Positions 43,968 through 60,001 of a stretch of DNA of 64,000 bases are shown piece by piece. The notes beneath the pieces were generated by a model that was given only the letters and a program-made list of their open reading frames with translations, was not told where the DNA came from and did not search any database. Each line of letters opens with the position of its first letter. The first letter of the stretch is position 1. Both the position numbers and the translations under genes were made by a program. The stretch spans positions 3,036-67,035 of the forward strand of contig JABDBI010000008.1 of assembly GCA_013288705.1 (NCBI GenBank). The letters are read 5' to 3'. This DNA is from Methanobacteriota archaeon. Lineage in GTDB: Bacteria > Myxococcota > UBA727 > JABDBI01.

Positions 43968-43978
43968 CGGATTGGCCT

Positions 43979-45349
43979 CTAGATAATCTCGAAATAGCGT
44001 TGCATTTCAAACGACGTTACAGACTTTTGAAATTGCCTCCACTCCCACATTCTTGTGGCGGCAAAATGTTCAACGAATTGTTCGCCAAGAATTTCTCGAG
44101 CGATTGTCGATTTTTGCAAGAGCTCAGTCGCCTCAAGCAAATTGCGCGCAAGTTTTTTTCCTCGATTCTCGAGGTAAGCACTGCCTGTTACAGGCGCATC
44201 CGTGAGTGGAAGTTTATGTTCGATACCATATAGTCCGCTTGCAAGCGCGGCCGCAACCGTTAGGTAGGCGTTGATATCAGACCCCGGCACGCGTGTCTCC
44301 AATCTCGTGGAATGTGCGCTACCTGGAATCACCCGAAAAGCAACAGTTCGGTTATCCACTCCCCATGTGGTAGAGGTCGGTGCCCAGTAGCCCTCGACCA
44401 AGCGCTTGTAGCTGTTCACGTTGGGCGCAAAGAAGGGCAGTATTTCCGGCAAGAGAGCCATTTGCCCGGCTAAATAGTGCTTAAACGTCTGGCTCATCCG
44501 ACGTGGATCTTTTTCGTCGAAAAAGACATTTTTCTCGTGCTTCTCATCCCACAAACTCTGGTGCAAATGCCCGCTGCAGCCTGGCAAATTGCTGTTCCAC
44601 TTTGCCATAAAGCTTGGCATGATGCCAAAGCGGAGCCCTATTTCTTTAGCCGCCGATTTGAAAAGCACCGCACGATCAGCAGCCTCGAGCGCGTCCGAAT
44701 ACAAAATCGCGGCCTCCAAAACGCCCGGTCCAGTCTCGGTATGAAGCCCTTCGATGGGGACACGAAAATCTTGCATCTCTTCCATGAGTGCCGCAAAAAA
44801 AGGTTGATTGAGGGCTTGCCGCGTAATCGAATAGCCAAACATCCCCGGAGAAATAGGGGTCGGGTTCATATGGTTTTTATCGACAAACGATTGCGGTGTC
44901 TCTTCAAAATTAAACCATTCGAACTCAATGCCACAATTGGCAACAAATCCAGCATCTTTTGCACGCGCGATCACTGTTTTCAGTAATTGTCGCGGACAAA
45001 CGGGCAAGGGCTTTCCTGCATCATCCTCAAAGTCGGCAAGGAAAAATGGGATGTTGTCGTCCCATGGAATGTTGCGATGGGTTGCCAAGTCAATTCGCGC
45101 CTGCGCATCTGGATAGCCGTTGTGTCCGCCGGAAAATGTTGTGTTGTCGTAACAGACGTCGCCGGAATCCCAGCCAAAAATCACGCTGCAAAAGCCAAAA
45201 CCACCTCGCGCAGCATGGAGAAATTTATCTTTATGGATGTATTTTCCACGGAGCACTCCATCGATGTCTACGACCGCCACTTTCACTCTTGGGGAGTCCG
45301 AACGCACAATTTCATCGATGACGCCATCCATTGCAGCTCGATCTGGCAT
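43979..45349 (-). CDS. glutamine synthetase-like gamma-glutamyl-amine ligase (GS catalytic domain; PuuA/GlnA3/GlnA4-type)
   Basis: GS beta-grasp and catalytic-domain blocks (CGIEFEWFNF, PGVLEAAI, MPSFMAKW, HLHQSLWD). Adjacent to the Fe-ADH and ALDH genes on the same strand. Confidence 0.75.
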   Translation of the reverse strand: MPDRAAMDGVIDEIVRSDSPRVKVAVVDIDGVLRGKYIHKDKFLHAARGGFGFCSVIFGWDSGDVCYDNTTFSGGHNGYPDAQARIDLATHRNIPWDDNIPFFLADFEDDAGKPLPVCPRQLLKTVIARAKDAGFVANCGIEFEWFNFEETPQSFVDKNHMNPTPISPGMFGYSITRQALNQPFFAALMEEMQDFRVPIEGLHTETGPGVLEAAILYSDALEAADRAVLFKSAAKEIGLRFGIMPSFMAKWNSNLPGCSGHLHQSLWDEKHEKNVFFDEKDPRRMSQTFKHYLAGQMALLPEILPFFAPNVNSYKRLVEGYWAPTSTTWGVDNRTVAFRVIPGSAHSTRLETRVPGSDINAYLTVAAALASGLYGIEHKLPLTDAPVTGSAYLENRGKKLARNLLEATELLQKSTIAREILGEQFVEHFAATRMWEWRQFQKSVTSFEMQRYFEII

Positions 45350-45452
45350 TTCGTCTCCTTGGGAATGTTGTTAAATCTAATTGAACTAAAAGCATATGTG
45401 ATGCGTCAAATCAAGTCTAACCAAAGACGTCGTCAATAATTGAGGTGTCGTA

Positions 45453-47642
45453 ATGGGTGTGAAACAATTCTGGGTGCTGGTATTCTTCACTTTCGCCGGA
45501 TTGACGCACGAGGCTCATGCAGCTTCTCAGAGCACGACTTATCCGAGCAGGCCAGCTCATCTGCTGGTCAGGCACCGGCGACATGTGAGCGCTGAGCAAG
45601 TATCGGCATTGCATGCCGTTCTAGGTACAAAGGTCGTTCGTCGCTACCAATTGCCAGATGGCCTTGAGCTTGTTCGATTGCCAGCGGGGCTCGCGGCCGA
45701 AGACGCCGCTGCGCAATATATGAATGACCCGAGCGTTCTCTATGCGGAGCCAGATTATATCGTTCATGCTTTGGATACGCCAAGCACCGCGCAATTTTCC
45801 GATCAATGGGCGCTGCATAATACTGGCCAATCCGGCGGCAAAGTAGATGTCGATATCAACGCGCTGGGAATGTGGAATTTGACAACCGGAAGTTCTGACG
45901 TTGTAATTGGTATCGTCGATACAGGAATCTCTTACAACCACCCCGCGTTGGCTGCTAATGTCTGGGTAAATCCCTTGGAAATTGCCGGCAACGGGATTGA
46001 TGACGACAACGACGGCTATATCGACGATATACATGGGATCAATGCGATCAAGAAGAACGGTGACCCTATGGATGACAACGGCCATGGCACGCACGTGGCG
46101 GGCATCATCGGTGCACAAGGGAGCAACAGCGTCAGCGGGGTAAACAAAAAGGTATCGATGATCGCATGCAAGTTTCTCGATGCAGATGGATCAGGCAACG
46201 TCAGTGATGCAATTGCCTGCCTCAATTATTTCTTGGCTTTGGCAAAGCGACAAAAATCTCCGCTCAATATCGTCGCTACCAATAATTCATGGGGTGGTGG
46301 CCCTTACTCGCAAGCGCTCTACGACGCGATTCAAGCGCAGGAGCAGCAGGGAATTCTATTTATCACAGCTGCCGACAATGCCACTGCCAATAACGACGTG
46401 GTGGATACTTATCCTGCCAACTACAAGTTGCCCAATATCATTTCTGTGGGCGCAATTGATCGAAATGATCAACTCGCACCCTTCTCTGATTATGGAAAGC
46501 ACTCTGTGCACGTGACCGCCCCAGGTGTTGATATCTTGAGCACCTATCTGAACAATGGGTACGAACTTCTGAGTGGAACTTCCATGGCAACTCCCTATGT
46601 CACAGGCATTGCTGCGATGCTGAAATCCCACGATCCGACGCTTGATTGGAAGAGCATTAAGAATCTCATTGTTGCTGGCGGAGTTCCTTCTACGGGAGCC
46701 ACCAGCACCCTTTCGGGAAGGCGCGTTCGCGGCGCGGGCACAGATGGCACAGGTTCTCTCACGTGTCAAAACCAAGTTGTGACGTCGCGTCTTGCGCCAA
46801 CGGTGGATTCGATGAGCGTTGCGATCGGTTCTGCGGTTGGCTTATCGGAGCTTAGCATTAACTGTGCTCGACCGAATGGGCCAGTGAGCGTTTCGTTAGG
46901 TGCGGCCGGCGGATCTGTGCAACTCGTTGACGACGGCACAGGAATTTTTTCCAAGCAATGGGCTCCACAGACAGCAGGTCAGTACTCACTTAACTTTCCA
47001 GGCGCCGATGTTGTGAGTGTGCTTGCCTATGATCCGAGCAATTGGGGAACTTACCAATCGCAGAGCGCACCCTTCAATTATCGAACGATTACAGGCACAC
47101 CTGTTCATATTGGGGATGACACAGTCAACACGATCACTTCGGATTTCCCTGTCCATTTCGCTGGCGATACGCGTGGATTTACGAAGCTATACGTCGACAG
47201 CAATGGTGGCATCAGCATGACTGAAAACGTGATTTTGAGTGCCGACAATGTTGCGCTGCCATTCGATTCGTTTGCGACACTCATTGCACCCTACTGGGAA
47301 GATCTGATGGGTGCGGGTAGCCAAGATGTTTACTATCAAACTCTAGGCAGTGCGCCAAACAGAGAGCTTGTGATCGAGTGGCGAGATGTACCACAATATG
47401 GGAAGCAGGCGGGGTTTACGTTTCAGGTTGTGCTTTTTGAGGATAGCTCGGATATTCTCTTTAATTACAAAAATGTCACGAGCGGCGATAACGCGTTCGA
47501 TAAGGGTGTAGTCGCAACAATTGGCGTGCAAACAAGCGCGCACGCGGCGTCTATGTTTAGCTTTCACCAAGCATCAATTGCCAATAACACGGCGCTTCTT
47601 TTCACAACGGGAGGGAAGAGCAGCAGCAACGGTGCACATTGA
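45453..47642 (+). CDS. secreted subtilisin-like serine peptidase (S8) with N-terminal propeptide and about 300-aa C-terminal extension
   Basis: Signal peptide; I9-like pro-region; triad contexts GIVDTGISYNHP (Asp), HGTHVAGIIG (His), SGTSMATPYVTGIAAM (Ser). Confidence 0.85.
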   Translation: MGVKQFWVLVFFTFAGLTHEAHAASQSTTYPSRPAHLLVRHRRHVSAEQVSALHAVLGTKVVRRYQLPDGLELVRLPAGLAAEDAAAQYMNDPSVLYAEPDYIVHALDTPSTAQFSDQWALHNTGQSGGKVDVDINALGMWNLTTGSSDVVIGIVDTGISYNHPALAANVWVNPLEIAGNGIDDDNDGYIDDIHGINAIKKNGDPMDDNGHGTHVAGIIGAQGSNSVSGVNKKVSMIACKFLDADGSGNVSDAIACLNYFLALAKRQKSPLNIVATNNSWGGGPYSQALYDAIQAQEQQGILFITAADNATANNDVVDTYPANYKLPNIISVGAIDRNDQLAPFSDYGKHSVHVTAPGVDILSTYLNNGYELLSGTSMATPYVTGIAAMLKSHDPTLDWKSIKNLIVAGGVPSTGATSTLSGRRVRGAGTDGTGSLTCQNQVVTSRLAPTVDSMSVAIGSAVGLSELSINCARPNGPVSVSLGAAGGSVQLVDDGTGIFSKQWAPQTAGQYSLNFPGADVVSVLAYDPSNWGTYQSQSAPFNYRTITGTPVHIGDDTVNTITSDFPVHFAGDTRGFTKLYVDSNGGISMTENVILSADNVALPFDSFATLIAPYWEDLMGAGSQDVYYQTLGSAPNRELVIEWRDVPQYGKQAGFTFQVVLFEDSSDILFNYKNVTSGDNAFDKGVVATIGVQTSAHAASMFSFHQASIANNTALLFTTGGKSSSNGAH

Positions 47643-47668
47643 TACATGCTGCCGCCCTTCCCGGGCGC

Positions 47669-47923
47669 TTACCCGTGATTTGTTTCTTTTTGCTTCCAAA
47701 ACTTGAGAGCTTTCTCGAAGTTGCTTTCTTGTGCGGGCGCTTGGCTACTGGCAGTCGTCTGCGTGCCTGTGTGAGCTGAGCCGGTTTTGGCTTCCCAGAA
47801 ATCATGGAGTTCTGTAAAGGGCTCCGATCGCTCAGGGATCAAGGCCTCTGTCGCATTGTCTGAAGTCTGCTGGGCGGTTTGACTGGCGTTTTGGGCTTGG
47901 GGTTGGCTGATGATTGTGGGCAT
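47669..47923 (-). CDS. small hypothetical Gln/Thr/Ser-rich protein
   Basis: 84-aa ORF with a strong AGGAGG RBS 7 nt upstream; low-complexity N-terminus; no family recognised. Confidence 0.4.
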   Translation of the reverse strand: MPTIISQPQAQNASQTAQQTSDNATEALIPERSEPFTELHDFWEAKTGSAHTGTQTTASSQAPAQESNFEKALKFWKQKETNHG

Positions 47924-48012
47924 GGTGTTCCTCCTGTGTTTGGTTCTAGAAGGTAGGACATTATTTTGGCTAAGAATTGGCCATATCTGCCGAGATGGTT
48001 ATAATTAGTAGC

Positions 48013-48723
48013 ATGCCGAGTCGTATCTCATCTGGTGGAATGTCGAGCACAATCAACCCGTTTGGGCCACAGTGGCCGAAGGCTACCGAAGGGGCCAAGG
48101 AGGCCAGGCCGGTAGGGGACCAGGTAGAGGAGGCGCTGTTTGGCAAGCGCAAGCCACCTGTACTAGACGAAGATGACTTTCCAGAAGTCACAGAGATTTT
48201 GGCTCTGCTTGATAAGTACCGAAAGAAATTTGCTGTGATGGTGGGAGATCAAGAGAAAGACTATCGGCTCCAACTTGCCGACGGTACCTTAGCGATGATC
48301 GACGGCCACGGAACGATATTTATTGGTGTGCGGTTTTTGCTTAAATTTCAGAAAAACCCGAGTGTGCTCATTGGTGCCCTCGCACATGAGGTTGGCCACA
48401 GGCCACACCGATGGGCAGAGTACAAGACCAAGAAAGATCTGAACCGTGAAGAGATCAATGAACTTTGTCGATTTGAAGAGACGCGCGCAGATCTGTTCGC
48501 GGGGCGCGCGATGGCTGAGGTGAACATTAGCCCAGAGCCAATGATCCAATTTCTCGAGGAGATCGAGGAAGGTCCACATCCCGACTATTTTCCGGCAAAG
48601 ATGCGTGCCGACGTCATTCGCGAAGGTTATAACGAACAAAAATCAAAGGTCAATAATCGCAAAAAGATGTGGCCTGAGCTGGACAGGGCGACCGCAGCGC
48701 GTTTGCATCTCGGCGACTTCTAG
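48013..48723 (+). CDS. putative zinc metallopeptidase with ImmA/IrrE-like motif (HEVGH...E..RADLFAGRAM)
   Basis: HExxH followed about 25 aa later by E-x2-R-A-D-x-F-A-x-R-A-M, resembling the COG2856/DUF955 signature. No adjacent HTH partner seen. Confidence 0.45.
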   Translation: MPSRISSGGMSSTINPFGPQWPKATEGAKEARPVGDQVEEALFGKRKPPVLDEDDFPEVTEILALLDKYRKKFAVMVGDQEKDYRLQLADGTLAMIDGHGTIFIGVRFLLKFQKNPSVLIGALAHEVGHRPHRWAEYKTKKDLNREEINELCRFEETRADLFAGRAMAEVNISPEPMIQFLEEIEEGPHPDYFPAKMRADVIREGYNEQKSKVNNRKKMWPELDRATAARLHLGDF

Positions 48724-48728
48724 TGTTT

Positions 48729-50090
48729 TTACATCAGCCATTTTGCTATTTTCATCCCCATCGCGCGAAACGGCGGGTAGCGTAGTGGGATATCTACATA
48801 TGTGCTGCCCATCACCACAGCTTTTTGATGGCTAAACGTATTAAACCCAAAGTGCCCATGGTAAGCACCCATGCCGCTTGCCCCAATGCCACCAAATGGT
48901 AAATCGGGAACGACGGTATGCACCAACACATCGTTGATGCACAGCCCACCCGAGCTGGTGTTTAACTGCACCGTTTTTTGCAGTTCGGGGTCTTTGGAAA
49001 ACAAATACAGCGCCAATGGTTTGTCGCGCTTATTCACAAATTGAATGGCCTCTTCCATATGCGCGACGGTCACCACCGGCAAAATCGGACCAAAAATCTC
49101 CTCTTGCATCACCGGTGACTCCGGATCTACATCCGACAAAATCGTCGGCGCGACATACTTTTCTTTGACATCTACTTCCCCACCACAGCTGATCACCTGC
49201 CCCTCGAGCAGAGCAGCGAGCCGATTCACATGCGCCTCACTCACAATGCGACCATAGTCTTTGCTGGTCTTGGGCGTATCGCCATAAAAAACTGAGATGT
49301 ACTTCTGCATTGCCTCGATCAGTGGCTTCTTAATAGATTCATGTGCAAGCACATAGTCGGGCGCGATGCATGTCTGCCCGGCATTCATAAATCTTCCCCA
49401 GACAATGCGCTTGGCCGCAATTTCGAGTTCAACTTTTCTATCGACAATAGCGGGGCTCTTGCCGCCAAGTTCAAGGGTCACTGGCGTTAAATATTTGGCC
49501 GCTTTCTCAAGCACGATTCTGCCTACGCGTTGGCCGCCGGTGTAAAAAATGTGGTCAAATTTCTCTTCGAGAAGCGCTGCGGATTCTTTTGCGCCGCCTT
49601 CCACCACGCAAACGCAGCTTTGGTCGAGATATTTTGGTACCAGCGTGGCGATGATCTTCGACGCATGAGGCGCCAACTCAGATGGCTTGAGCAAAACACA
49701 ATTACCCGCCGCGAGAGCCGGTATCAACGGTCCCAGCACAAGCTGTAAGGGATAATTCCATGCGCCCAGAATGAGCACGACACCAAGTGGCTCGGGCTGT
49801 ATAAAACTCTTGGCCGGCGCATTGACAATCGGCGTGCATACGCGACGTGCTTTCATCCAGCGCGACAAGTTCTTTCGTGCGTGCTCGATTTCCGCGCGGA
49901 TAGTCGCGATATCAGCCACATAGGCTTCAAACGCTGGCCGACCGAGATCTTGCGCCAGAGCTTGAATGAGTGCGTCCTCATTTTCTTTAAATAACCGATC
50001 GAGGGCATCGAGCTGGCCGTCTCGCCATTCTTCTGTTTTGGTGGTTCCAAGAAAAAACGAATGTCGGAGTTTTTCAATCACGTCGATCAT
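48729..50090 (-). CDS. aldehyde dehydrogenase, class 3-like (fatty/aromatic aldehyde DH)
   Basis: ALDH3-type length (453 aa) and motifs LELGGKSP and CIAPDYVL (catalytic Cys). Confidence 0.8.
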   Translation of the reverse strand: MIDVIEKLRHSFFLGTTKTEEWRDGQLDALDRLFKENEDALIQALAQDLGRPAFEAYVADIATIRAEIEHARKNLSRWMKARRVCTPIVNAPAKSFIQPEPLGVVLILGAWNYPLQLVLGPLIPALAAGNCVLLKPSELAPHASKIIATLVPKYLDQSCVCVVEGGAKESAALLEEKFDHIFYTGGQRVGRIVLEKAAKYLTPVTLELGGKSPAIVDRKVELEIAAKRIVWGRFMNAGQTCIAPDYVLAHESIKKPLIEAMQKYISVFYGDTPKTSKDYGRIVSEAHVNRLAALLEGQVISCGGEVDVKEKYVAPTILSDVDPESPVMQEEIFGPILPVVTVAHMEEAIQFVNKRDKPLALYLFSKDPELQKTVQLNTSSGGLCINDVLVHTVVPDLPFGGIGASGMGAYHGHFGFNTFSHQKAVVMGSTYVDIPLRYPPFRAMGMKIAKWLM

Positions 50091-50156
50091 GCGAAACTTT
50101 TAGCACCCGTCGTCGATAAATCAACAGATTCCAACCGCAAATCGACGAGGGTAGCC

Positions 50157-50510
50157 ATGGTAGACCGAATCATAAAACTGACCGTTGCGATGGTACTTTC
50201 TCTGTTTGCTGTTTCCGCAAGCGCCCAAGGCCAAGTTGGATCACCCTGCACCACCGATGCAAACTGCGAAGCTGGATCTGTCTGCACGCCGGAGAGCGAC
50301 GAAAATGGCGCGACGGGGTTTGTTGGTGGCTACTGCATGAAATTTGACTGCACGTTTGAACAAACGATGTGTGGCGAAGGTGGCACTTGTGTAATTGATA
50401 ACTCCATGAACGTGAGCATGTGTTTGGCATCATGCCGCATAGACACGGACTGCCGTGCAGGCTATCGCTGTCAGGGCGGCACGGTGTGTTTGCCGGGGAA
50501 TCGATCGTAG
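50157..50510 (+). CDS. small secreted disulfide-rich protein (12 Cys in about 95 mature residues)
   Basis: Signal peptide MVDRIIKLTVAMVLSLFAVSASAQG, then regularly spaced Cys (C-x5-C-x6-C ...). ATG at 50157; the long upstream extension is unlikely. Confidence 0.45.
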   Translation: MVDRIIKLTVAMVLSLFAVSASAQGQVGSPCTTDANCEAGSVCTPESDENGATGFVGGYCMKFDCTFEQTMCGEGGTCVIDNSMNVSMCLASCRIDTDCRAGYRCQGGTVCLPGNRS

Positions 50511-50517
50511 GTAAAAA

Positions 50518-51096
50518 ATGGCATGGACCCGCGAACAAATGGCCGCGCGCGCAGCGCAAGACATTCACGATGGTGAGATCGTCAACCTAGGCATCGGTAT
50601 CCCAACGCTTGTCGCCAATTACCTCGATGGACGCGACGTCGTTATCCACTCCGAAAATGGTTTGCTCGGCATGGGTCCCTTTCCTTTCGAAGGTGAAGAG
50701 GATCCACAAATCGTCAATGCCGGTAAGCAAACCGTTACCATTTTACCTGGCGGCAGTACCTTTGACTCAACACTAAGCTTTGCCATGGTGCGTGGTGGGC
50801 ATGTCGATGTCGCTATTTTGGGCGGCATGCAGGTTTCGGCGCATGGTGACTTGGCTAACTGGGCAGTGCCGGGGGAAAAAGTCACCGGCATGGGTGGGGC
50901 GATGGATTTGGCGAGTGGTGCCAAACGGGTGATTTGTTTGATGATGCACCACGATAAAAATGGCAAGTCAAAATTGGTCCCGGAGTGTACCTTGCCACTC
51001 ACCGGACTTCGCTGTGTGAACCGCGTGATTACTGATCTCGGCGTGTTTGATATCGCGGAAGATGGCGGTTTTACGCCTGTTGAGATGGCGGCGTAG
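50518..51096 (+). CDS. 3-oxoacid CoA-transferase subunit B-like, orphan and C-terminally truncated (possible pseudogene)
   Basis: MAWTREQMAARAAQDIHDGEIVNLGIGIPTLVANYL...SENGLLGMGPFP is canonical ScoB/AtoA. No A-subunit gene nearby. The ORF ends right where the ATPase insertion begins, and a degenerate copy of its last about 60 nt lies at about 52640..52716. Confidence 0.7.
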   Translation: MAWTREQMAARAAQDIHDGEIVNLGIGIPTLVANYLDGRDVVIHSENGLLGMGPFPFEGEEDPQIVNAGKQTVTILPGGSTFDSTLSFAMVRGGHVDVAILGGMQVSAHGDLANWAVPGEKVTGMGGAMDLASGAKRVICLMMHHDKNGKSKLVPECTLPLTGLRCVNRVITDLGVFDIAEDGGFTPVEMAA

Positions 51097-51098
51097 CG

Positions 51099-52520
51099 TT
51101 ACAGCAGTGCATCCATGACGCTCGCAGCGTCGATCAAGCACACGTGATCGGGTAACTTCATTTTTGGCGGCGAGGGAACAAATAGACCGTAAAGGATCTG
51201 TGCGTTTGGATTGCGATGTATAGGTGGAATGCCTTTAGCGATCAGGCCATTCAAAACGTGTTGAATCGTGGCAGGCTGAACATTTTTGGGAAGAAATTTA
51301 GCCTCGGCGAGCAAGAGCGTTTTGCCATCAAGAGATTCTGCCACAATATCCCATTCGGGCCCTTTTCCGTGCCAAAATCTTCCGGCGGGGCCAAAGTCTA
51401 TGCCACCAAGGCTCGCGCTGAGCGAAGGCACTGCGCTGCGGCATAGTTCTTCCCATGCGCGTCCACACAGCCCTGGAAACCGCTCTTCAAACCATTTTTT
51501 TCGTGGGCCTAGCGGCGACTGTGACAATGTCGACCTTTGTGGGCCTACAGTTTCAAACCAAAATCGCAGAAAAGGATCTTTGATTTTATACAGAGCGCGC
51601 TTGGTTGCATGCTCGGACATATCAAAGGGCACTTCCCGTTCGACCAAGTCAAGTTCCATCAGCTTTGCGAGTGGGCGTGCGAGCGAGGTTGCTGGCAACC
51701 TGAGCCTACTCGCAATTTCGGAAGGCCTACTTGCACCAAGTCCGATAGCGTCGAGAATTGGCCTTACGCTGATGGCCGACGGCGTTTCTTCAAGTAAAAG
51801 CCGGTGCGGCTCCTCATGTAGCGGTCCCATGGCATCCAGCACCAAATTATCTGCTGCGCCGAATAGATCTTGGCCAAAGTCTTCAGCAAGTTCCCAATAC
51901 CGTGGAATTCCCCCCCAAAGTGTATAAGCTTCTACGGCTTTTTGCGCCGTTGACAGCGAGAGAGCAGACTGAATATGGCCTGCCGGTATGGGTGAAAGCT
52001 TGATGAGTTCTTTAGCACGTCCATATAGTGGCGCCGAAGAGTCGAGCACTGCCCCTTGCATCATGCGTTGGCTGGATCCGCAAATAGCAATGATGAGTTT
52101 CGCCGTGGAAGCATCATGATCAATGAAACGCTGCAGAACGCTCGCAAACTCTGGCGAGGTTTCAATCAGATAAGGCAACTCATCAATCACAATGGGCCCG
52201 CGAAAGTTCGCCTGCTTTGCTTGCTTGGCAAGATGCGAAAAAAACACAGTCCAGTGCGGATATTCAACTTGACCAAATCCTGGCAGGCGGGCCTCAAGGG
52301 CTTTTGCAAAGTTGCGTATTTGCAGTGCCATCGCCGATTCATCGGCCACCCAGTAAACGCCATGATGGCGGCGAACCCATTCAAGCAAAAGTCGGGTTTT
52401 ACCGACGCGGCGTCTGCCCCAAATAACGACCAAGCCACCGGATGTTGCTTTCGCAACCCGGTCCAGGCGAGTCAATTCGCGTTCCCGACCAATAAACCTC
52501 ATTATCTTATTATGCACCAA
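51099..52520 (-). CDS. AAA+ ATPase of the Arch_ATPase/ATPase_2 + DUF234 family, copy 1
   Basis: FIGRERELTRLD...VVIWGRRRVGKTRLL (Walker A), IVIDELPYL (Walker B), DUF234-like C-terminal half. Real start is probably the internal ATG (MRFIGRE, about 52502), because the TTG start overlaps an upstream palindrome. Confidence 0.7.
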   Translation of the reverse strand: MVHNKIMRFIGRERELTRLDRVAKATSGGLVVIWGRRRVGKTRLLLEWVRRHHGVYWVADESAMALQIRNFAKALEARLPGFGQVEYPHWTVFFSHLAKQAKQANFRGPIVIDELPYLIETSPEFASVLQRFIDHDASTAKLIIAICGSSQRMMQGAVLDSSAPLYGRAKELIKLSPIPAGHIQSALSLSTAQKAVEAYTLWGGIPRYWELAEDFGQDLFGAADNLVLDAMGPLHEEPHRLLLEETPSAISVRPILDAIGLGASRPSEIASRLRLPATSLARPLAKLMELDLVEREVPFDMSEHATKRALYKIKDPFLRFWFETVGPQRSTLSQSPLGPRKKWFEERFPGLCGRAWEELCRSAVPSLSASLGGIDFGPAGRFWHGKGPEWDIVAESLDGKTLLLAEAKFLPKNVQPATIQHVLNGLIAKGIPPIHRNPNAQILYGLFVPSPPKMKLPDHVCLIDAASVMDALL

Positions 52521-52561
52521 AACATAATGTTTTCAAGCATAATGTTTCTTTGCATAATAAG
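52506..52561. promoter_or_regulatory. palindromic operator-like site upstream of ATPase copy 1 (CTTATTATGCA-N34-TGCATAATAAG with internal CATAATGTTT direct repeats)
   Basis: 11-bp perfect inverted arms seen directly. Coordinates approximate (about +/-1). Confidence 0.5.
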
Positions 52562-52639
52562 TGCCAGACCCAAAAATTCGCATCCTGTTACGTGATTCAG
52601 CACGTCAAACTGGCCAACTACGCCCGAAGGATCTCTCTA

Positions 52640-52716
52640 TCATCGCGAAAGATAGCGGTCTTACGCCCGTTGAGCTGGCGTCGGGCGCCTCGGAGCTAAA
52701 AAAAAGCGGTACTTAA
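52640..52716 (+). repeat. degenerate duplicate of the scoB-like 3' end (atcgcgaaagatagcggtcttacgcccgttgagctggcg...), forming a direct repeat with 51049..51093
   Basis: About 85% identity over about 42 nt, in the same reading frame (IAKDSGLTPVELA versus IAEDGGFTPVEMA). Coordinates approximate. Confidence 0.55.
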
Positions 52717-52807
52717 TTTGCATTGCAAATTGCTTGTGCGGTATTCTTGGCAGTGAAGGATAAAAATTTCCTGCATGCAAGGCGTGCCACACGGAGATGG
52801 AGAGGAT

Positions 52808-54742
52808 ATGAGCAAGATAGTAAGAAGCAATCGGTCGTCTATGCTGGGCGCTGTGGCGCTGATTGGCATGGGCTTGGTTTTTAGTGGCAGTAGTTGCCCC
52901 AACAAGAGTAGTACGTCACCTACACCTACGCAGGGCGCAGAGGGTATTACCTTTCCAGGAACGCTGGCGATAGCCACAATTGGTGCTGGTGGTGCCGGGG
53001 TGCAGTTGCCAACGACAGCGACAGATACCCAAAATAACAACGCATTGCTTCCCATTACTTGGTACGTAGCGCCTGCGCCCAACGGTGCGGCAGTCACCAC
53101 TGGCGGATTATTGACAGCGTCATATATCCCTAACGATACGGCCTGTAATACAACAGAAGCTATTTCTGTTACGGGGTCGGCGACATCTGGCGATGGAACA
53201 CGCACGGCGACTGCAACCTATGCTCTGACGGCAGCCAATACCTGGTGCACGATGGCAGCAGTGGCAGGCGATCCCACGGGGGCCAAAGGGCCTCTGGCTA
53301 CCGGTGTGTTTGCGCTAGCCGCTTCAGGTACAGGTCAGGGTATTGGCGGTACTGCGGGTACTCTGAAATTATATGTTGGAACGGTGAGTGGTCTATCGAC
53401 CTACAATGGAGCTACTGGAACATGGTCGGGTATGACGACTGCTCCGGGTCAGCTCGCTGCAAATGCCATTAATATGAATGGCTTGGCAGTAGATAGCACC
53501 GGGACTGTGTGGGTCGCACCAGCCTCGAAGAACCTTCAGAGCTTCAATGGTGCTGCCTGGACGACGTTCGCCGCCAGCATTCCCAATGCCAACGTGACTG
53601 GTGTTGCGATTGATCCATCGAACAATGTGTACATTGGCACAAGCGCAAGTGCGGCCTATCTTCCCAATACTGCCGCGGCCCCGGCGACTACGACAACCGC
53701 ATTTGTGCCATTGCCGACTGTCACTGCGGGCACCACAGTGATCACATTTGATGCAGCCACACCGGTAGATGCATGGTTTGGAGCCTCAGCGGGCGTGCAG
53801 ATTTTTCCAGTAGGCAGTACCGCCACGAGCACGGCCGTGGCAACTGCAACTTTTGCATCCCCGGCTCTTCTTTTGCCCGGCAGGTTTGGCGGCACTGGTA
53901 CGATTGGTGCCCTTTATCGAGATACAAACAACAATATGTGGGTAGGCCAGCAGTTCACATCTCTCAGCGGTTCGCAAGGGCTGGTGTTGAATGTGTACAC
54001 TCCTCCGACGTCTCGCGCTGCAACGGGTGGCACATGGACAAAACTGCCTGTGATTAATTCAACTACCTCAAGTGGCTCAAACACTGTCAATGGCATTGCT
54101 GTTGATGGAAATGGCAATGCATGGATCGCCACAGCAGGCGGTTTGTATCTGTTTCAGCCGACCACGGCGGGTAATTATTCGGCGGGCACATGGACGTCCT
54201 TCCCAGTAAGCTCGAATGGCCAAGAGGGGCCTGTTGGCGTCGCCATCAACGCAATATGGTACGATTCCGGCGCAAGTACTCTATGGATTGGCACAAACGC
54301 AGGTGGTTTGACTCGCTTGTGGCTGCCTGGATATGTGTATCCTGTAACGGCACCAGCGACAACGACCTTTACATGTGTACCCAGCACAACACCAGCAGCA
54401 GCGACTGCGCAAGCGACCTATTGCGGTACATTCACCGTACCGCAAACCGCTGCTGGCGCAACTTATCCGGCAAATCCCGGGTCGGCTGGATGTATCGGTA
54501 CGCTGCCAACGGGCGCAACGGCGGCCGGCAGCGCGTATACCTTGTGCAGTTGGCTTGCAAACACACCAGCAGCTACCACTACTATTAATAGTGTAGCAGT
54601 AGCCAATGGTGCATGCTCGGCCGTTGCCGCTCCAAATTTTGCTGGGTTATGCGCTAGCGCGACCACTTTGGTGAATGCACAGACAACGCCTACTGGCGCT
54701 GCTTGTGGAACGCTGACCGGGAGCATGTGCATACAACAGTAA
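52808..54742 (+). CDS. surface lipoprotein with Reg_prop (two-component regulator propeller) beta-propeller repeats, Thr/Ala/Gly-rich; paralog 1
   Basis: Lipoprotein signal MSKIVRSNRSSMLGAVALIGMGLVFSGSSC. Recurring [VIL]W[VI]G[TS]xxGGLxx[FLY] motifs (VWVAPA, VYIGTS, MWVGQQ, AWIATAGGLYLF, LWIGTNAGGLTRLW). ATG at 52808 with a GGAGAGGA RBS. Confidence 0.6.
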   Translation: MSKIVRSNRSSMLGAVALIGMGLVFSGSSCPNKSSTSPTPTQGAEGITFPGTLAIATIGAGGAGVQLPTTATDTQNNNALLPITWYVAPAPNGAAVTTGGLLTASYIPNDTACNTTEAISVTGSATSGDGTRTATATYALTAANTWCTMAAVAGDPTGAKGPLATGVFALAASGTGQGIGGTAGTLKLYVGTVSGLSTYNGATGTWSGMTTAPGQLAANAINMNGLAVDSTGTVWVAPASKNLQSFNGAAWTTFAASIPNANVTGVAIDPSNNVYIGTSASAAYLPNTAAAPATTTTAFVPLPTVTAGTTVITFDAATPVDAWFGASAGVQIFPVGSTATSTAVATATFASPALLLPGRFGGTGTIGALYRDTNNNMWVGQQFTSLSGSQGLVLNVYTPPTSRAATGGTWTKLPVINSTTSSGSNTVNGIAVDGNGNAWIATAGGLYLFQPTTAGNYSAGTWTSFPVSSNGQEGPVGVAINAIWYDSGASTLWIGTNAGGLTRLWLPGYVYPVTAPATTTFTCVPSTTPAAATAQATYCGTFTVPQTAAGATYPANPGSAGCIGTLPTGATAAGSAYTLCSWLANTPAATTTINSVAVANGACSAVAAPNFAGLCASATTLVNAQTTPTGAACGTLTGSMCIQQ

Positions 54743-54766
54743 GGTATCCATCATAAGGATGCAGAC

Positions 54767-54797
54767 AGCGGGAAGCGTTGGCTTCCCGCTTTTTTTT
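54767..54797 (+). terminator. rho-independent terminator after propeller lipoprotein 1
   Basis: AGCGGGAAGC-gttg-GCTTCCCGCT stem-loop followed by a 7-T tract. Confidence 0.75.
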
Positions 54798-54805
54798 GGC
54801 GTGTG

Positions 54806-54906
54806 GAGAAAGTGTCATCTGAACTAGACAAAAATCAGTGAAAACTGCAAAGTACAGATGACAGCTCGAGAATTTATGAACCTTCAAGAAGCTGCCCGAA
54901 ATCGAT
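54806..54906 (+). repeat. direct repeat R1, copy a (about 100 bp; contains a pseudo 3' end of a DUF234-ATPase gene)
   Basis: About 80% identical to 56784..56882, with an identical 37-bp core gaatttatgaaccttcaagaagctgcccgaaatcgat. The reverse complement of the core encodes ...IDFGQLLEGS*, the C-terminus of ATPase copy 2. Confidence 0.7.
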
Positions 54907-54957: not shown

Positions 54958-55886
54958 CTAGAGGTCAAGCTGTTTGATCCGCTCGCCGATGGTTCGGATA
55001 GTCTCCTCCACTTCTGTAAATGGCGGCAAGTCTTCTGGCTGGAAAACGAACGGTTCCATATCAGGGTTGAAAATTCGGCGAATACGGGCCGTAACATCGC
55101 TTGAATTGCTAAACAACGGTGCTGCCGAAAGTTTGAATTTGGACCATTTCTCACGTGTATTAAGCTCTTCATCGTCTCGCCGAATATTTTGTACCCGCGG
55201 ATAAAAATCCGCGCTGCTTAAAAAATTGGCGACGTCAGTTTGGCGAAGGAGCATCGTCAGGTCATAAAAATGGCGAACCCGAGCCCGTGTTTCCTTGATT
55301 GATGCGCTGCCGTCCATCATACTTGCGTAGAAGAGGGAAAGAATTTTCTCAGCGAACGTTATCCTGTAGTCTAAGACATAAACAAAAATAGGCCCCAGTT
55401 CATATTCTTGAATCACGGATATTGATGTATGGTACGTCGAAATTTCCCCTTTTTGTTTGTGACGCCGTCTTGGACCACTTCCTCGAAAGGCGGTTGCGTT
55501 AACAATTTCGCCATTCTTTTTAGAAGTGCTTCTGTTTGAGACTGAGTGCGAGAGTTTTCTGCTACCGCAAGATCAATGTCTTCGGAAAAACGTCGTACGA
55601 TATTGTAAGCTTTGGAAAGAGAAGTTCCGCCCTTAAATATAATCTCCGCGGATTCCTTGGCTTGACTCAAGCGTTTCAGAATGAGGGTTAGCCAATAGTC
55701 TTTTTCGACGTAAACTTCCCTGATGCCCAAATCCTGGGATGTTGCAGCGATGAGCGTCTGAAAGTCCTGGATGTTCTCGTGCAATTTCAACGTATTCTCC
55801 AAAAGCTTCGATTGGGCAACTGCGCATCTGAAACACCAAATGTGTAAGCAGTCATGGGGTTCAGATCTTTTTTCAACTTCTTCCAT
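54958..55886 (-). pseudogene. AbiEii/AbiGii-family nucleotidyltransferase toxin (type IV TA), disrupted by a frameshift near 55416
   Basis: N-part (55413..55886) has FKGGTSLSKAY...RRFSEDIDL, the AbiEii/DUF1814 NTase motif. The C-part (54958..55416) continues in another frame with a 4-nt overlap. Confidence 0.6.
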
Positions 55887-56500
55887 TGCGGCAACTGCAG
55901 ATTTTGAAGAAGAGCACCTAAGAGTGCGCGAACCGATGGTCTATATGGCTGTGACAAAGTAGTCAGCCTACTTATTTCGCGCGCACTTAATCTCTGCAGA
56001 GAAGTCTTTAGCCTTTGAAGTGTAACGTCGATGCTACCATTAGGTATGCTCTTGAATAGGCGAAGGGTTTCAAGAATATTGGTGAGGGCTGACTCCTCTG
56101 GTTGTGCATCTTTGCTGCCACCGACGATAAATTTGATGCGCAGAGCGCCAACACGACGCGTTCTGTTTGAACGGCTGCCGAGAATCGTGATTTCGCTTGG
56201 AATTTGCGAGCTCACACCGATATCATTTAAAGCAGAAAAGCCAGCAATGTAGCCCCCTGTTTGCTGAAGTAATTTATCGATGATTTGGCCTTCGGACGGC
56301 ATCAATAATCCGAATTGCGTTTTCTGAGCCACATAGTATTGCCCCTTGGATAGCCTTCTTAAGCCACCAGTTTTGCTGAGCCGGCTTAGGTTGAGAGCTA
56401 CCGCCTGAAAATTACCAAGGTCAGCGAAATCTGTGTAATTGAGGATACTGCCCGCAGGAAATTGCGCTATTTTTTCCTTTACTTGTGAAGCAATAGACAT
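55787..56500 (-). CDS. AbiEi-family antitoxin / transcriptional regulator (type IV TA)
   Basis: Position immediately upstream of the NTase toxin and overlapping it; N-terminal wHTH-like region (LSRLSKTGGLRRLSKGQYY). ATG at 56500 with an AGAGGTGG RBS. Family assignment from memory. Confidence 0.5.
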   Translation of the reverse strand: MSIASQVKEKIAQFPAGSILNYTDFADLGNFQAVALNLSRLSKTGGLRRLSKGQYYVAQKTQFGLLMPSEGQIIDKLLQQTGGYIAGFSALNDIGVSSQIPSEITILGSRSNRTRRVGALRIKFIVGGSKDAQPEESALTNILETLRLFKSIPNGSIDVTLQRLKTSLQRLSAREISRLTTLSQPYRPSVRALLGALLQNLQLPQWKKLKKDLNPMTAYTFGVSDAQLPNRSFWRIR

Positions 56501-56527
56501 GACCACCTCTTTTACCAAGGTAGCATA

Positions 56528-56559: not shown

Positions 56560-56602
56560 CCATAAATCGACATTTTGCTGTTTTGCAGACGATTATGAAT
56601 GC

Positions 56603-56711
56603 CGCCCCGATGGGGCTTCAAAATTAGGGAGGCGTCTTACCTGGGGTTCCCGCGCGCCAAAGCGCACGCGTCCACCCCAGGCTATATTTTGTCACGCCCA
56701 AGGCGTTTAGA
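56603..56711 (+). repeat. direct repeat R2, copy a (109 bp, GC-rich, internally palindromic: CCCCGATGGGG; CCTGGGG...CCCCAGG)
   Basis: 106/109 identical to 58423..58531. Confidence 0.8.
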
Positions 56712-56783
56712 CCTGAAGAAGATCTTCGTCGAGGGGGGTGAAAAAATCTCACCAAATCAAGAAAACATCAATTTGGCGCGCGG

Positions 56784-56882
56784 AAAAGTGTAATCTGGAC
56801 TAGTTAAAAATTAGGGAAAACTGAAAAGTGCAGGTGACGGTTCGGGAATTTATGAACCTTCAAGAAGCTGCCCGAAATCGAT
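56784..56882 (+). repeat. direct repeat R1, copy b (includes the last 11 codons and stop of ATPase copy 2 plus about 65 bp downstream)
   Basis: See R1 copy a. Confidence 0.7.
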
Positions 56883-58305
56883 GATAGAGGCAAAAAAATC
56901 CTGTTGCTCAATCTCGTCATCAATGCCATTGACGTGGATCAGGACTGGCCTTACGGAATAAGCTCGCAATTGCTTTAACCGATCAATTTTTGTCTTTATC
57001 TCCTCAATAACCTCTACACCAACAGGTTTTTTGGAAAATTTTATTTCACACACATACAATGTATTAAATTTTGTCTGTATCATGTAGTCAATCTGACAAC
57101 CCTGGCGGTTCGTGGTCGGTCGCTGAAAGTAGGGGTTCTCAGAAACAATCTCTTCAGCACGTAGCCCCAGTGCCTTATGAATTTCTTTGCGATTATTGAG
57201 CACCAGATTTTCGAACTGCAATCCAAAAATTGTTTGCAACTCAGGCAGGCTACTAATCGATTTTATGGAAAAACTATCCCGCGCAATCTTGGTGTGATAT
57301 TTGGCAATATATTTTAAATAAAAACGTAGATAATTATCGCTTAGACGATATTTACTCAACTTCGAGTCATGCCCACTTTCAATGCGCCAGGTGTAATCTC
57401 GTTTAACAAAGCCGGCCAATGCAAGCTCCTCAAGATACTCACTAAATCTTCCCGTTTGCTTAATCTGTAAAGCGTTACAAATCTCCTGTGGCTCTTTCGA
57501 TCCTGACACCAAGGTTTGTACAATTTCTCGATACAGAGCGCTGTCGCGCAAAAATAAATCTGAAAAAATATTATTAAATTCATTCACCAAAAACCCGCCC
57601 TTTTTAAAGCAAAGATTTCTGATGTTTTCTTCGGCACTCAGCCTGAAGTCTACTTCTTCAAGGTACTTTGGCACACCACCCGTAACGGCAAAAATTTTCA
57701 GCTTTTCGTAGGCAGAGATGTGTTTTGCGCTTGCGCCCCAAAAAAGAGCACAGTCGTTGAGCGAAATCTCTTCAAGCGTTAACGTATATGAAATGCGACC
57801 CAAGAATCCCGTACTGCTCAAGATGTTTTTTTCAATCCATGAAGATGCTGAGCCGCACACAATGAAGATGAGTTGGTCATTTTTTTTAAGATGCTGATCC
57901 CAAAAGTTCTTGATCTTCCCAAGAAACGTTGGATCCTCAGATCCCATCCAAGAAATTTCATCAAACAACAACAACACTTTCCCCGATTTTACTTGCTCAC
58001 TCACAGCCCATAATGCGTCGCCCCAATCGTCATAGCGGGCCTTTGGCGTTTTAAATTGTTGTGCCATCTGGAGGGAAAATTCTTCTAACTGATGCTGAGT
58101 TGTCACATGTTTTTCAGGCGCCAGCCCCATAAAGCTGTAAAATGCATCAAACTGCTTGCCAAACTGCTCAATCAGCCGGCTCTTTCCAATACGCCTTCTG
58201 CCCCGCACCACAATAAATGATGCTGACCTTTTTTTGGTAAAACGTTCAAGTTCTGCAAGTTCTTTTTTTCGCCCAATAAACTGATGGGCCCGTTTTTTTG
58301 ACATA
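56850..58305 (-). CDS. AAA+ ATPase of the Arch_ATPase/ATPase_2 + DUF234 family, copy 2
   Basis: FIGRKKELAELERF...IVVRGRRRIGKSRLI (Walker A), LLFDEISWM (Walker B). Paralogous to 51099..52520. ATG at 58305 (MSKKRAHQF, GGGTGG RBS) preferred; the TTG at 58334 lies inside the upstream palindrome. Confidence 0.7.
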
Positions 58306-58320
58306 GTTACCACCCTATTT

Positions 58321-58412
58321 GGTACTGCAAACAACGATTTTTAATGTTTGCAGTACCAATCTAGCACCTGTCGCTGGTACTGCAAATCACAATTCTTGTT
58401 ATTTTCAGTACC
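58321..58412. promoter_or_regulatory. two tandem palindromic operator-like sites upstream of ATPase copy 2
   Basis: GGTACTGCAAAC-N13-GTTTGCAGTACC (perfect) and GGTACTGCAAAT-N13-ATTTTCAGTACC (one mismatch). Same 12-bp half-site, centres about 55 bp apart, 16-107 nt upstream of the start codon. Confidence 0.6.
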
Positions 58413-58422
58413 GGGTGAGTGT

Positions 58423-58531
58423 CGCCCCGATGGGGCTTCAAAATTGAGGAGGCGTTTTACCTGGGGTTCCCGCGCGCCAAAGCGCACGCGTCCACCCCAG
58501 GCTATATTTTGTCACGCCCAAGGCGTTTAGA
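58423..58531 (+). repeat. direct repeat R2, copy b
   Basis: 106/109 identical to 56603..56711. Confidence 0.8.
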
Positions 58532-58632
58532 ACGGGTCCCAAATTTGCATAGTGCCCATTGATTAGAATTGCCATTACGATGGAGCGGCCACTTGTTTGC
58601 TTTATAGCAGGCCTCTGTATTACGATTGTTCC

Positions 58633-60000
58633 ATGCGTAATTTCCTGCCACTTATCGCCCTATTAGCGGTGCATCTCGTTGCTTGCTCCACGCCCAGCAC
58701 CGTGTTGGACATCAGTGCGCCTGCGGTGATTGGGACAGGCACCAATTCGTCGGTTTCGGTTGATGTTGCGCAAGCGAAGAGTGCTGTTTTTTTGAACTGG
58801 ACCCAAGTGGACACCACTGGGCCACGTGTGACTTGGCTAGCAAATCAACAGGCGGTGAATCCGACGTTTTCTGTGGCTTCGCTTTCAAACTGTAGCGAAG
58901 AAGAACAGGTTACACTGCAAGTGCAGGCAACCGATGCTTTTGGCAACGTGAATGCCTCACAGGTGACGATCGGAGTGAAGGAACTCTGGTGCACCTACAA
59001 GACTCCGGCAGCGAATATGTTGAGCAACATCGTGACTCGGGTTGCTGCCAATAATGGTGTGATCTGGGTCGGTACGGATTCGGGTCTGAATCGCTTTGAT
59101 GGCATTAACTGGCAAGCATTTACCGAGCAAAGCACAGCGTCGATCGCGGGTGGACTCGCGGCCAATCAGGTACGCGCGCTGGCTGTGACATCAAATGACG
59201 ACGTTTGGGTGGCTGTTTATACACCATCTCGCATTTCGACAATTTTTGACACCGTCACGGGGGTGAATGTCTACCACGATAAAACCAAGACCTGGCAACA
59301 TTTCACCAAGGGCGCCAATGAGCTGAATAGCAATACGGTCTATACGCTGGCTCTTGCAGAGCCGGATATGCTTGTGGGGACGGACACAGGCGTAAGTACA
59401 TTTCAATTGGCGACGACAACATGGAGTAGCTATTCAGTTGTTGATAAGGTTAGAGCGATTACGCGTTCGTTAACAAACCAAGATTGGTTAGGCACCGACG
59501 GTGGTGTTTTCGTCTATTCCGATGGCCAAAAAGTGACGCAATATGACAACACTGCCACCGGTGGAGTGCTCGTTAGAAGTTTAATTACCGGCAGCTTTGA
59601 CTTTCGTGCTGCTATTACAGACGGCCAGGGTAGCATCTGGTTTGGCGAAGGCGCAGGTGTCGCGCGTTATCTAGCCCCACAGCTCCAAGGCGGAATTCTT
59701 CCAACCTGGAAGCTCTTCACGGCAGGCGCCGTCGGCGGTGGCCCTGCCAGTAACGATATTCGCGCATTTGCCCTCGACGGCAACGGCAATCTCTGGATCG
59801 CCACAGGTGGCGGATTGAGCACGTTTTTCATTACCGGAGCCAACAAAGGGCAATGGAATTCCTTTTCATCTGACTTGGTCAATACGCCAAATGGTTTGCA
59901 AACCAACGATGTGCGAGATGTCACCTACGACAGCGAAAATAATTACTTATGGATCGGCACAAATGGCGGCGGACTGACGCGGTATTGGCTTGGGGGATAG
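58633..60000 (+). CDS. surface lipoprotein with Reg_prop beta-propeller repeats; paralog 2
   Basis: Lipoprotein signal MRNFLPLIALLAVHLVAC. Motifs VIWVGTDSGLNRFDG, MLVGTDTGVSTF, LWIATGGGLSTFF, LWIGTNGGGLTRYW. Confidence 0.6.
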   Translation: MRNFLPLIALLAVHLVACSTPSTVLDISAPAVIGTGTNSSVSVDVAQAKSAVFLNWTQVDTTGPRVTWLANQQAVNPTFSVASLSNCSEEEQVTLQVQATDAFGNVNASQVTIGVKELWCTYKTPAANMLSNIVTRVAANNGVIWVGTDSGLNRFDGINWQAFTEQSTASIAGGLAANQVRALAVTSNDDVWVAVYTPSRISTIFDTVTGVNVYHDKTKTWQHFTKGANELNSNTVYTLALAEPDMLVGTDTGVSTFQLATTTWSSYSVVDKVRAITRSLTNQDWLGTDGGVFVYSDGQKVTQYDNTATGGVLVRSLITGSFDFRAAITDGQGSIWFGEGAGVARYLAPQLQGGILPTWKLFTAGAVGGGPASNDIRAFALDGNGNLWIATGGGLSTFFITGANKGQWNSFSSDLVNTPNGLQTNDVRDVTYDSENNYLWIGTNGGGLTRYWLGG

Positions 60001-60001
60001 C

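Follow-up and report, generated by a model that had tools for sequence, protein, structure and literature searches.

In the 64,000-nucleotide (nt) stretch of contig JABDBI010000008.1 analysed here (the window), a gene for a ScoB-like CoA-transferase subunit (scoB) converges on ATPase1, a gene on the opposite strand for a predicted ATPase-nuclease fusion, and a diverged second copy of the last codons of scoB lies on the far side of ATPase1, beyond its promoter. We consider it likely that this arrangement records an old insertion: a self-contained cassette, made of ATPase1 and its own promoter-operator, would have entered at the native short end of scoB and duplicated a 42-nt target. The features that carry the argument, in window coordinates, are the following.

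50518..51096, plus strand: ScoB-like gene, short, without a partner, intact (PF01144, TIGR02428)
51052..51093, plus strand: direct repeat copy A, the last 14 sense codons of scoB (gene-proximal copy)
51094..52641, no strand: putative inserted unit of 1,548 nt, bounded by repeat copies A and B
51099..52502, minus strand: ATPase1, 467 amino acids (aa) from its ATG, or 473 aa from an upstream TTG at 52520
52506..52561, no strand: palindromic promoter-operator of ATPase1, 56 nt, with four ATTATGC/CATTATG-type half-sites in an inverted repeat with 27-nt arms
52642..52683, plus strand: direct repeat copy B, distal relic of the scoB 3' end
52684..52716, plus strand: in-frame continuation of the relic, 10 codons past copy B (GASELKKSGT and a stop)

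Results

The scoB end is repeated beyond ATPase1

Pairwise alignment joins 51052-51093 to 52642-52683 as an ungapped direct repeat of 42 nt at an offset of 1590, with 36/42 positions identical (85.7%), and both copies read in the scoB frame. An earlier note on this DNA had reported a diverged, in-frame copy of about 42 nt some 1.55 kilobases (kb) away, and the alignment bears it out at a similarity above chance: when the region is compared by blastn with all 64 kb of the window, the match has E=1.4e-7 and there are exactly two copies, no third, and 41/61 positions match at offset 1590 as against 10-21 at adjacent offsets. A repeat search seeded with an exact 8-mer had missed the pair, which shares none, so that direct alignment and blastn were used. 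The longest run identical in both copies is 7 nt, TTACGCC, which would fit a crossover core of 6-8 base pairs (bp) and fits drift equally well. Because neither 42-mer matches any of 83 scoB loci of other genomes at more than 26/42 positions, the two copies are specifically related to each other and are not merely two scoB ends. They differ at five non-synonymous sites and one synonymous site (amino-acid identity is 9/14, nucleotide identity 86%), which is expected of neutral drift in at least one dead copy and not of two functional paralogues; compared with ScoB homologues, the L that replaces a conserved F and the S that replaces a G in copy B are derived states. Over 40518-54899 the window is 100% identical to L001, an independently made assembly (Logan SRR8432536), and the structure of the locus is therefore not an assembly artefact.

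The probability that the repeat is a chance similarity between two unrelated stretches is practically negligible. It is short and lacks an exact 8-mer seed, but the E-value, the offset scan, the weak foreign matches and the in-frame match at the right place lead us to reject this explanation. Elsewhere in the window, a 21-nt stretch at 62728-62748 agrees with the beginning of the scoB repeat region at 18/21 positions, 14 of them in one uninterrupted run (TTGATATCGCGGA); it falls in another open reading frame (ORF) that runs off the window end (…GVDIAEGGAANFDAVVHKRPMLSLD…), and is probably a chance similarity at the protein and DNA levels alike.

Past copy B, the distal frame extends to IAKDSGLTPVELASGASELKKSGT and a stop at 52714-52716. 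The earlier note took this continuation for the original C-terminus of ScoB. The frame does run to that stop, and 52684-52716 may be the displaced original tail of scoB, but the gain in profile score is slight. The exact join (50518-51051 plus 52642-52716, a few bases from the join that had been proposed) encodes 202 aa and gains 2.4 bits on TIGR02428, and the 10-residue extension adds 3.1 bits on a hidden Markov model (HMM) built from long-form ScoB homologues, on which the joined score is equalled by 2% of random 10-mers and 11.5% of shuffled extensions. The joined frame reaches profile position 193 of 207 only, and is not the full-length ScoB that had been suggested.

The bracketed unit is one gene with its control region

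The 1,548 nt between the copies contain the scoB stop (TAG, 51094-51096), the dinucleotide CG, ATPase1 on the minus strand with its stop codon at 51099-51101, the promoter-operator, and about 80 nt more; as had been noted, two bases separate the convergent stops. ATPase1 is the only ORF with family matches in the unit. No transposase or integrase was found in 51094-52641 by domain search, and no terminal inverted repeats at its ends by inverted-repeat search; Rfam and tRNA scans gave no match near the scoB/ATPase1 locus, and no tRNA genes in the parallel loci. The GC content of the unit, 52%, is that of its flanks and of the host, and together with the 14% divergence of the repeat it fits an old event, in agreement with the earlier dating.

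ATPase1 matches the Pfam families ATPase_2 (7.6e-19) and DUF234 (2.8e-8) and a MarR_2-like helix-turn-helix, as well as the PADLOC model PDC-S27 (1.8e-41). Its motifs are invariant across 31 sequences (ATPase1 and 30 homologues): Walker A GRRRxGK (GRRRVGKT in ATPase1), D107/E108, and D385...E400-A/x-K402. The AlphaFold2 model (pLDDT 92) has as its best matches among solved structures 2qen and 2fna, both uncharacterised archaeal ATPases, followed by Orc1/Cdc6 initiators; a sequence-based search of solved structures gave no significant match. Judged from sequence and model, ATPase1 belongs to the Orc/Cdc6-like AAA+ ATPases and combines a winged helix with a C-terminal domain of PD-(D/E)xK type, all motifs being intact; it is a candidate defence (anti-phage) gene of PDC-S27-like type. 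Its best match beyond this genome, 59% identical, is in a Chlamydiae metagenome-assembled genome (MAG). Homologues number thousands across phyla of Bacteria and Archaea, with a patchy distribution that includes 122 plasmid records and 7 homologues in 2.9 million viral contigs.

A promoter scan places the -35 hexamer of ATPase1 (TTGAAA) at 52536-52531 and, after a 16-nt spacer, the -10 hexamer (CATAAT) at 52514-52509, with 10/12 sigma-70-type matches. The ATG follows 7 nt past the -10 hexamer, so the transcript is predicted to be leaderless or nearly so. The motif CATTATG/CATAATG is present upstream of 57/69 homologues, in genomes of 38-74% GC, at a density of 1.29 per 140 nt upstream of the 69 homologues versus 0.0077 elsewhere in the same loci, and a CATTATG-type motif is also found upstream of viral-contig homologues at 37% identity. 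Since the operator is kept upstream across homologues, the ATPase gene and its control region form one conserved module, and the earlier treatment of gene and operator region as a single unit was sound. Most likely, the winged helix of ATPase1 binds the CATTATG sites overlapping its promoter and autoregulates the gene.

Family-wide (upstream of homologues in loci L087-L175), the operator is about 50 bp long and has half-sites of the type ATTATGC N9 CATTATG N9 CATAATG, with the -10 hexamer inside the last half-site; the start codon often lies at most about 7 nt from the -10, a leaderless arrangement. Homologues on Bacteroides plasmids have the altered half-site GATTATC/GATAATC, and the operator of ATPase2, a second ATPase gene of the window, has TACTGCAAA repeats; from such sequences it looks as if operator and winged helix co-evolve. 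A dif/Xer-like nature of the operator was considered and rejected: CATAAT and TTATG resemble dif arms, but the operator's half-sites have another orientation and spacing, and the flanking repeats are unlike dif.

The same footprint recurs around homologues elsewhere

Flanking repeats were surveyed in 80 metagenome loci with ATPase1 homologues by aligning 600 nt from each side of the gene; 60 loci were testable, and six of them have strong flanking direct repeats. As a control, the same test was applied to all ORFs of 350-650 aa in the loci analysed. Repeats scoring at least 18 flank 5/47 ATPase-like ORFs versus 3/292 others (Fisher p=0.0017), and the three others are two DUF4143 AAA+ ATPases in the array of locus L157 and one microsatellite.

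Three loci are especially close to the case in the window. At L097, a GT4 glycosyltransferase gene converges on the ATPase gene, in the same geometry as scoB and ATPase1, and its end (...AIFEAVRSLCS and the stop) plus 38 nt is repeated (62/68 identical) beyond the ATPase operator, where it reads ...LFEAVQSLCS and a stop. At L107, the last 18 codons and the stop of the adjacent ORF (272-886) are repeated after the ATPase gene with 58/59 positions identical. At L157 (936-6804), five repeat copies of 31-44 nt, with a 31-nt identical core, separate four ATPase cassettes in both orientations; the repeat holds the 3' end of a CapD-like gene (GTGDA and the stop), the distance from each ATPase stop codon to a repeat copy is 0-17 nt, and the ATPases (three DUF4143, one DUF234) are 25-30% identical or unrelated. 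One L157 cassette also contains a 109-aa fragment of the CapD-like gene, and repeat identity there falls with distance (68, 84, 100, 93%). Recurrence of the footprint around homologues in unrelated genomes (L097, L107, L157) supports mobility of the unit independent of R1/R2, the pair of repeats further along the window so named in the earlier note, which had already claimed such independence.

The flanking repeat at L100 is 280 nt long and non-coding, and that at L160 is 28 nt; over all loci, repeat lengths (28-280 nt) and unit edges differ, and the units have no common terminal sequence. Plasmid homologues showed no flanking repeat in the four loci checked, and the seven viral-contig homologues no flanking target repeat. 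At L146, a 34-nt direct repeat (3149-3182 and 7859-7892) that resembles a tRNA 3' end (GTCGAATCC…CCA-like) surrounds a 4.7-kb segment with an ATPase homologue, a sequence suggestive of integrase-type islands as the vehicle of some family members.

The repeats of three loci were rejected as evidence: that of L121 is a palindromic element, that of L151 an 8-nt microsatellite, and those of L158 a generic array of REP/RAYT type. At L158 (778-2330 and 3788-3930), 66-nt and 115-nt tandem repeat arrays lie beside a gene whose product, judged by eye, is IS200/RAYT-like, an HUH protein for which Pfam gives no match at E<=0.001. The arrays extend over the 3' end of a DUF433 gene and reappear past the ATPase gene; the locus shows how a generic repeat element can mimic the flanking-repeat footprint.

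The short scoB is native to its lineage

The ScoB-like ORF encodes 192 aa ending in ...DIAEDGGFTPVEMAA, includes the HSENG motif, and matches PF01144 (CoA_trans) at 2.9e-48 and TIGR02428 (ScoB/PcaJ) with 296.1 bits (curated cutoff 243.55), over profile positions 1-185 of 207; the C-terminal tail of a full-length ScoB is missing, as the profile is covered to 185/207 by the gene and to 193/207 by the joined frame. The earlier note had described the gene as an orphan that ends abruptly. That no A-subunit partner is present holds true, since tblastn finds no ScoA-like sequence in the 64-kb window. Seven other loci inspected (L002-L006, L167, L168) have no scoA beside scoB either, and the lack of scoA is thus a feature of the clade, unrelated to the insertion. 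To call the end abrupt is misleading: among the 120 nearest homologues there are 12 short forms (181-194 aa, one of them the protein of the window itself) whose ends fall 0-2 residues from that of the window gene (with ends such as ...FTPVELAA, ...FTPVELAT, ...FNPIEVAS and ...FRIVEKA), and two of these occur in the same synteny without the ATPase.

The shared synteny is a triad of an aldehyde dehydrogenase gene on the opposite strand, a gene for a small Cys-rich protein, and the short scoB (window 48729-51096; L002 6346-8570; L003 4853-7063). At L002 (a Myxococcota MAG) and L003, the triad has a single scoB end and no ATPase, and the triose-phosphate isomerase gene (tpiA) directly follows scoB; in relatives, the order after scoB is tpiA-pdxJ. 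As relatives without the ATPase share both the short end and the lack of scoA, neither trait was produced by the ATPase, and sequence comparison indicates that the short, partner-less ScoB is native to this lineage and intact. The annotation of the window should be corrected in this sense, as the gene was not truncated by an insertion.

The small Cys-rich protein of the triad looks secreted. Further members of this ScoB clade lack a partner as well, in quite different contexts, beside TLC nucleotide transporters or split TPP enzymes, and the sequences suggest that the function of the clade is other than that of a classical two-subunit CoA-transferase.

Two further cassettes lie downstream

Downstream of the ATPase1 unit follow a beta-propeller gene, an AbiEi / split-AbiEii module, ATPase2, and two more propeller genes. 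The features of this region are:

54795-54906 and 56772-56882, no strand: D2, 112-nt direct repeat, 88% identical, bracketing AbiEi / split-AbiEii
54958-56518, minus strand: AbiEi / split-AbiEii module (Pfam and PADLOC matches)
56596-56711 and 58416-58531, no strand: D1 (R1/R2 of the earlier note), 116-nt direct repeat, 96% identical, bracketing ATPase2 and its own operator
56850-58334, minus strand: ATPase2 (PADLOC PDC-S27, 6.6e-93)
58321-58412, no strand: palindromic operator of ATPase2, differing from that of ATPase1, within the D1 bracket

ATPase2 is 25% identical to ATPase1. D2 takes in the 3' end of ATPase2 (its final 11 codons and the stop) and 78 nt beyond it, and is a parallel inside the window to the repeats made of gene ends at L097, L107 and L157; the ATPase2-end relic beyond the AbiE genes reads VIDFGQLLEGS where the intact gene has IIDFGQLLEGS, each before a stop. 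The elements follow one another in the order D2a, AbiE, D1a, 60 nt, D2b, ATPase2, D1b; this D1/D2 stretch is two tandem cassettes with like ends and different cargo. With a GC content of 40-44% for ATPase2 and 40-46% for the AbiE-ATPase2 stretch, against about 52% for the host, the stretch is clearly foreign.

AbiEii is split between two minus-strand ORFs, 55413-55886 and 54958-55416, which correspond to the N- and C-terminal portions of a single PADLOC AbiEii model; from its sequence, it is probably a frameshifted toxin gene beside an intact AbiEi (55787-56518). The ORFs at 52775-54742 and 58597-62125 are paralogous Reg_prop beta-propeller genes that share short segments of 70-86% nucleotide identity. 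Both ATPase cassettes are divergent from, and lie just upstream of, Reg_prop propeller genes, which may be a coincidence or a preferred site.

Discussion

Comparison with known systems

Insertion with long target duplication has been described for restriction-modification (RM) units of all types (Furuta, Abe and Kobayashi 2010, NAR 38:2428, PMC2853133), where term and footprint are traced to Nobusato et al. 2000. Such RM units insert without mobility genes and are bracketed by long repeats of unique target sequence that vary in length (46-423 bp); among the examples, 46-bp repeats take in 15 bp and 2 bp of the 3' ends of genes, and mcrA has inserted likewise as a single gene. Flanking repeats are enriched around RM genes over average ones, a still unknown mechanism is suspected to involve double-strand breakage, and amplification through the repeats has been shown while release and re-infection have not (PMC2853133). 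The cases were recognised by a defence-type insert without a mobile-element gene and below 20 kb, a repeat of more than 30 bp that is not multi-copy, and an empty site in a related genome. In the window, the insert is a candidate defence gene in a unit of 1,548 nt, and the repeat is 42 nt long with two copies in 64 kb. The likeness extends to a defence-type unit without transposase or integrase, to variable repeats of the local target that are often gene 3' ends, to a single nuclease gene (mcrA there) as the whole insert, and to the enrichment of repeats over average genes. The cargo differs: it is a PDC-S27-like AAA+ ATPase with a winged helix and a PD-(D/E)xK domain instead of an RM system, and it brings a palindromic promoter-operator conserved across its family. 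The repeat in the window is also old (86%), whereas most published cases are near-identical, and the empty-site genome that was decisive in the paper has no counterpart here.

PDC-S27 and PDC-S01 are ATPases fused to PD-(D/E)xK domains, and validation is pending for most PDC candidates (PMC12988326). The PADLOC PDC candidates derive from genes embedded in BREX, DISARM and type I RM loci (Payne et al., preprint 10.1101/2024.01.29.577857); for the arrival of embedded genes, that preprint offers only the idea of a 'genomic sink', and term searches of it return no mention of repeats. Both ATPase1 and ATPase2 match the PDC-S27 models and share the fusion of an ATPase with a PD-(D/E)xK domain.

Integron cassettes and attC arrays resemble the loci described here in their tight one-gene cassettes, and the L157 array is likewise separated by copies of one short site; they differ in that the repeats here are host-gene 3' ends and not attC, each cassette has its own promoter, and both orientations occur. 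An integron reading was rejected, as neither a conserved site of attC type nor, among the ORFs examined, an IntI is present. In e14 and phage 21, which sit in icd, and in cis-mobilisable elements, the 3' end of a coding gene is duplicated at the attachment sites. There, too, the ORF stays whole through the copy nearest to the gene, and the displaced one is a pseudo-end, but the window has neither an integrase nor a long identical core, and the 'element' is a single 1.5-kb gene cassette.

Proposed history of the locus

We hypothesize that ATPase1 with its promoter-operator was acquired horizontally as a single-gene cassette and inserted long ago at the very end of scoB, duplicating the last 42 nt of the reading frame; copy A would still close a functional scoB, and copy B, past the ATPase promoter, would be a drifting relic. 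Either of two routes could have led to the order target-unit-target: a double-strand break or staggered nicks near the gene end, repaired by joining of foreign DNA with fill-in, or recombination of a circular or repeat-flanked copy via short homology. The flanking repeats would then be portable homology arms for excision, amplification and transfer to relatives sharing the target, and autoregulation by the winged helix through the CATTATG sites would make the cassette an expression module that works in many hosts. Insertion of the ATPase1 unit into the scoB 3' end with target duplication, as the earlier note had it, remains the best explanation of the locus, though without an empty site and without resumed synteny behind it.

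These and several other observations weigh against the proposal. No empty site was found: among ScoB homologues, the nearest reach 76-81% identity and have tpiA after their scoB, and a scan of a genome collection with ScoB gave no close relative, the homologues among the matches listed being 58-70% identical. L002 and L003 have one scoB end and no ATPase, but are too diverged for an empty-site comparison, at 75-77% amino-acid identity and with at most 26/42 matches to the 42-mer, and they have tpiA next. No tpiA remnant follows the distal relic in any frame, and downstream synteny is not resumed after it; around scoB, gene order is rearranged relative to L002/L003, with pdxJ at 18.4 kb, FGGY/IsoDH at 33-36 kb and tpiA absent from the window, so that an extra rearrangement must be assumed and a simple insertion is not reconstructable. 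The right edge of the repeat falls exactly on the native stop position of the short-form relatives, a coincidence under a simple staggered cut; it would be explained if the donor supplied the proximal end, or if truncation were tolerated only at this structural boundary. Around 90% of homologue loci have no flanking repeat, some of the repeats found around homologues are generic elements (L158, L121) and had to be excluded, and the varying repeat lengths and boundaries imply no single enzymatic mechanism. PDC-S27, finally, is a candidate for a defence role, and its protection from phage is putative.

Alternative explanations

Part of this evidence can be read as site-specific integration of the e14/icd type, which we think unlikely. 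An element carrying ATPase1 beside its attachment site would have recombined into the scoB 3' end, so that the element-borne copy closes scoB with the short-form stop and the original end (…ELASGASELKKSGT) is displaced; the integrase and the rest of the element would later have been lost, or the integrase would have acted in trans, as with a cis-mobilisable element. Repeats drawn from the 3' end of a gene are a classic hallmark of such elements, and an element-borne end would explain why the proximal copy stops exactly at the native short-form position. The five-repeat array of L157 has a 31-nt identical core and sharp edges, as if elements had integrated one after another at a single site, and the tRNA-3'-end-like repeat of L146 around its 4.7-kb segment with a homologue points the same way. 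No tyrosine or serine recombinase or integrase, however, occurs in the unit or among the ORFs scanned (47.9-63.8 kb), the copies share an identical run of only 7 nt, repeats reach 116-280 nt, and several unrelated loci bracket an ATPase cassette without any mobility gene, which is not expected each time from independent decay of larger elements. An insertion sequence or transposon was rejected on similar grounds, with no transposase domain, no inverted repeat at the unit ends, and a repeat of 42 nt here and of 28-280 nt in homologous loci.

The heavy rearrangement of scoB synteny relative to L002 and L003 would also suit a local rearrangement unrelated to ATPase mobility, in which a 75-nt fragment beyond a resident ATPase gene would be what deletions left of a segmental or tandem duplication that took in the scoB end, or else the remains of another scoB copy; the weak resemblance of the relic tail to long-form ScoB tails agrees with this. 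We give it little credence, as the repeat edges bracket exactly one gene with its control region, and the same one-gene bracket surrounds homologues in unrelated genomes at different target genes. The nucleotide identity of 86%, far above the amino-acid identity of 9/14, together with foreign ends at no more than 26/42, rules out an old paralogue.

It is rather improbable, in our view, that the ATPase-nuclease is itself the mobility enzyme, with DUF234/DUF4143 AAA+/PD-(D/E)xK proteins (PDC-S27, PDC-S01) as autonomous elements of one gene each, which would cut close to the 3' ends of genes and duplicate a long target on insertion. All repeat-bracketed genes in the control screen are of this protein class, the four cassettes at the single L157 site are all such ATPases, the nuclease motif is invariant, and Furuta et al. 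(PMC2853133) suspected double-strand breakage as a property shared by RM units that insert in this way. Unit boundaries and repeat lengths are not fixed, though, and there are no conserved terminal sequences; the AbiE module shows the same footprint in the window with no nuclease domain found by searches, and the large majority of homologues (~90%) are without repeats. We know of no biochemical precedent for a self-mobilising ATPase-nuclease. If this explanation were true, re-use of the duplicated target would produce tandem arrays such as L157, with four cassettes and five repeats, and it would explain the arrival of 'embedded' defence genes inside operons and defence loci.

Significance

How single defence genes enter genomes without a transposase or integrase is an open question. 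The insertion proposed for ATPase1 would extend the long-target-duplication footprint to a very abundant candidate defence class, the ATPase-nuclease fusions, with thousands of members across Bacteria and Archaea; with their conserved promoter-operator, these genes are cassettes self-contained for expression. Both the L157 array and the repeat-bracketed cassettes are concrete substrates on which excision, amplification and re-integration can be tested. The case in the window would thus extend a known insertion mode to ATPase-nuclease candidates, and link them to a little-studied and unexplained form of gene insertion.

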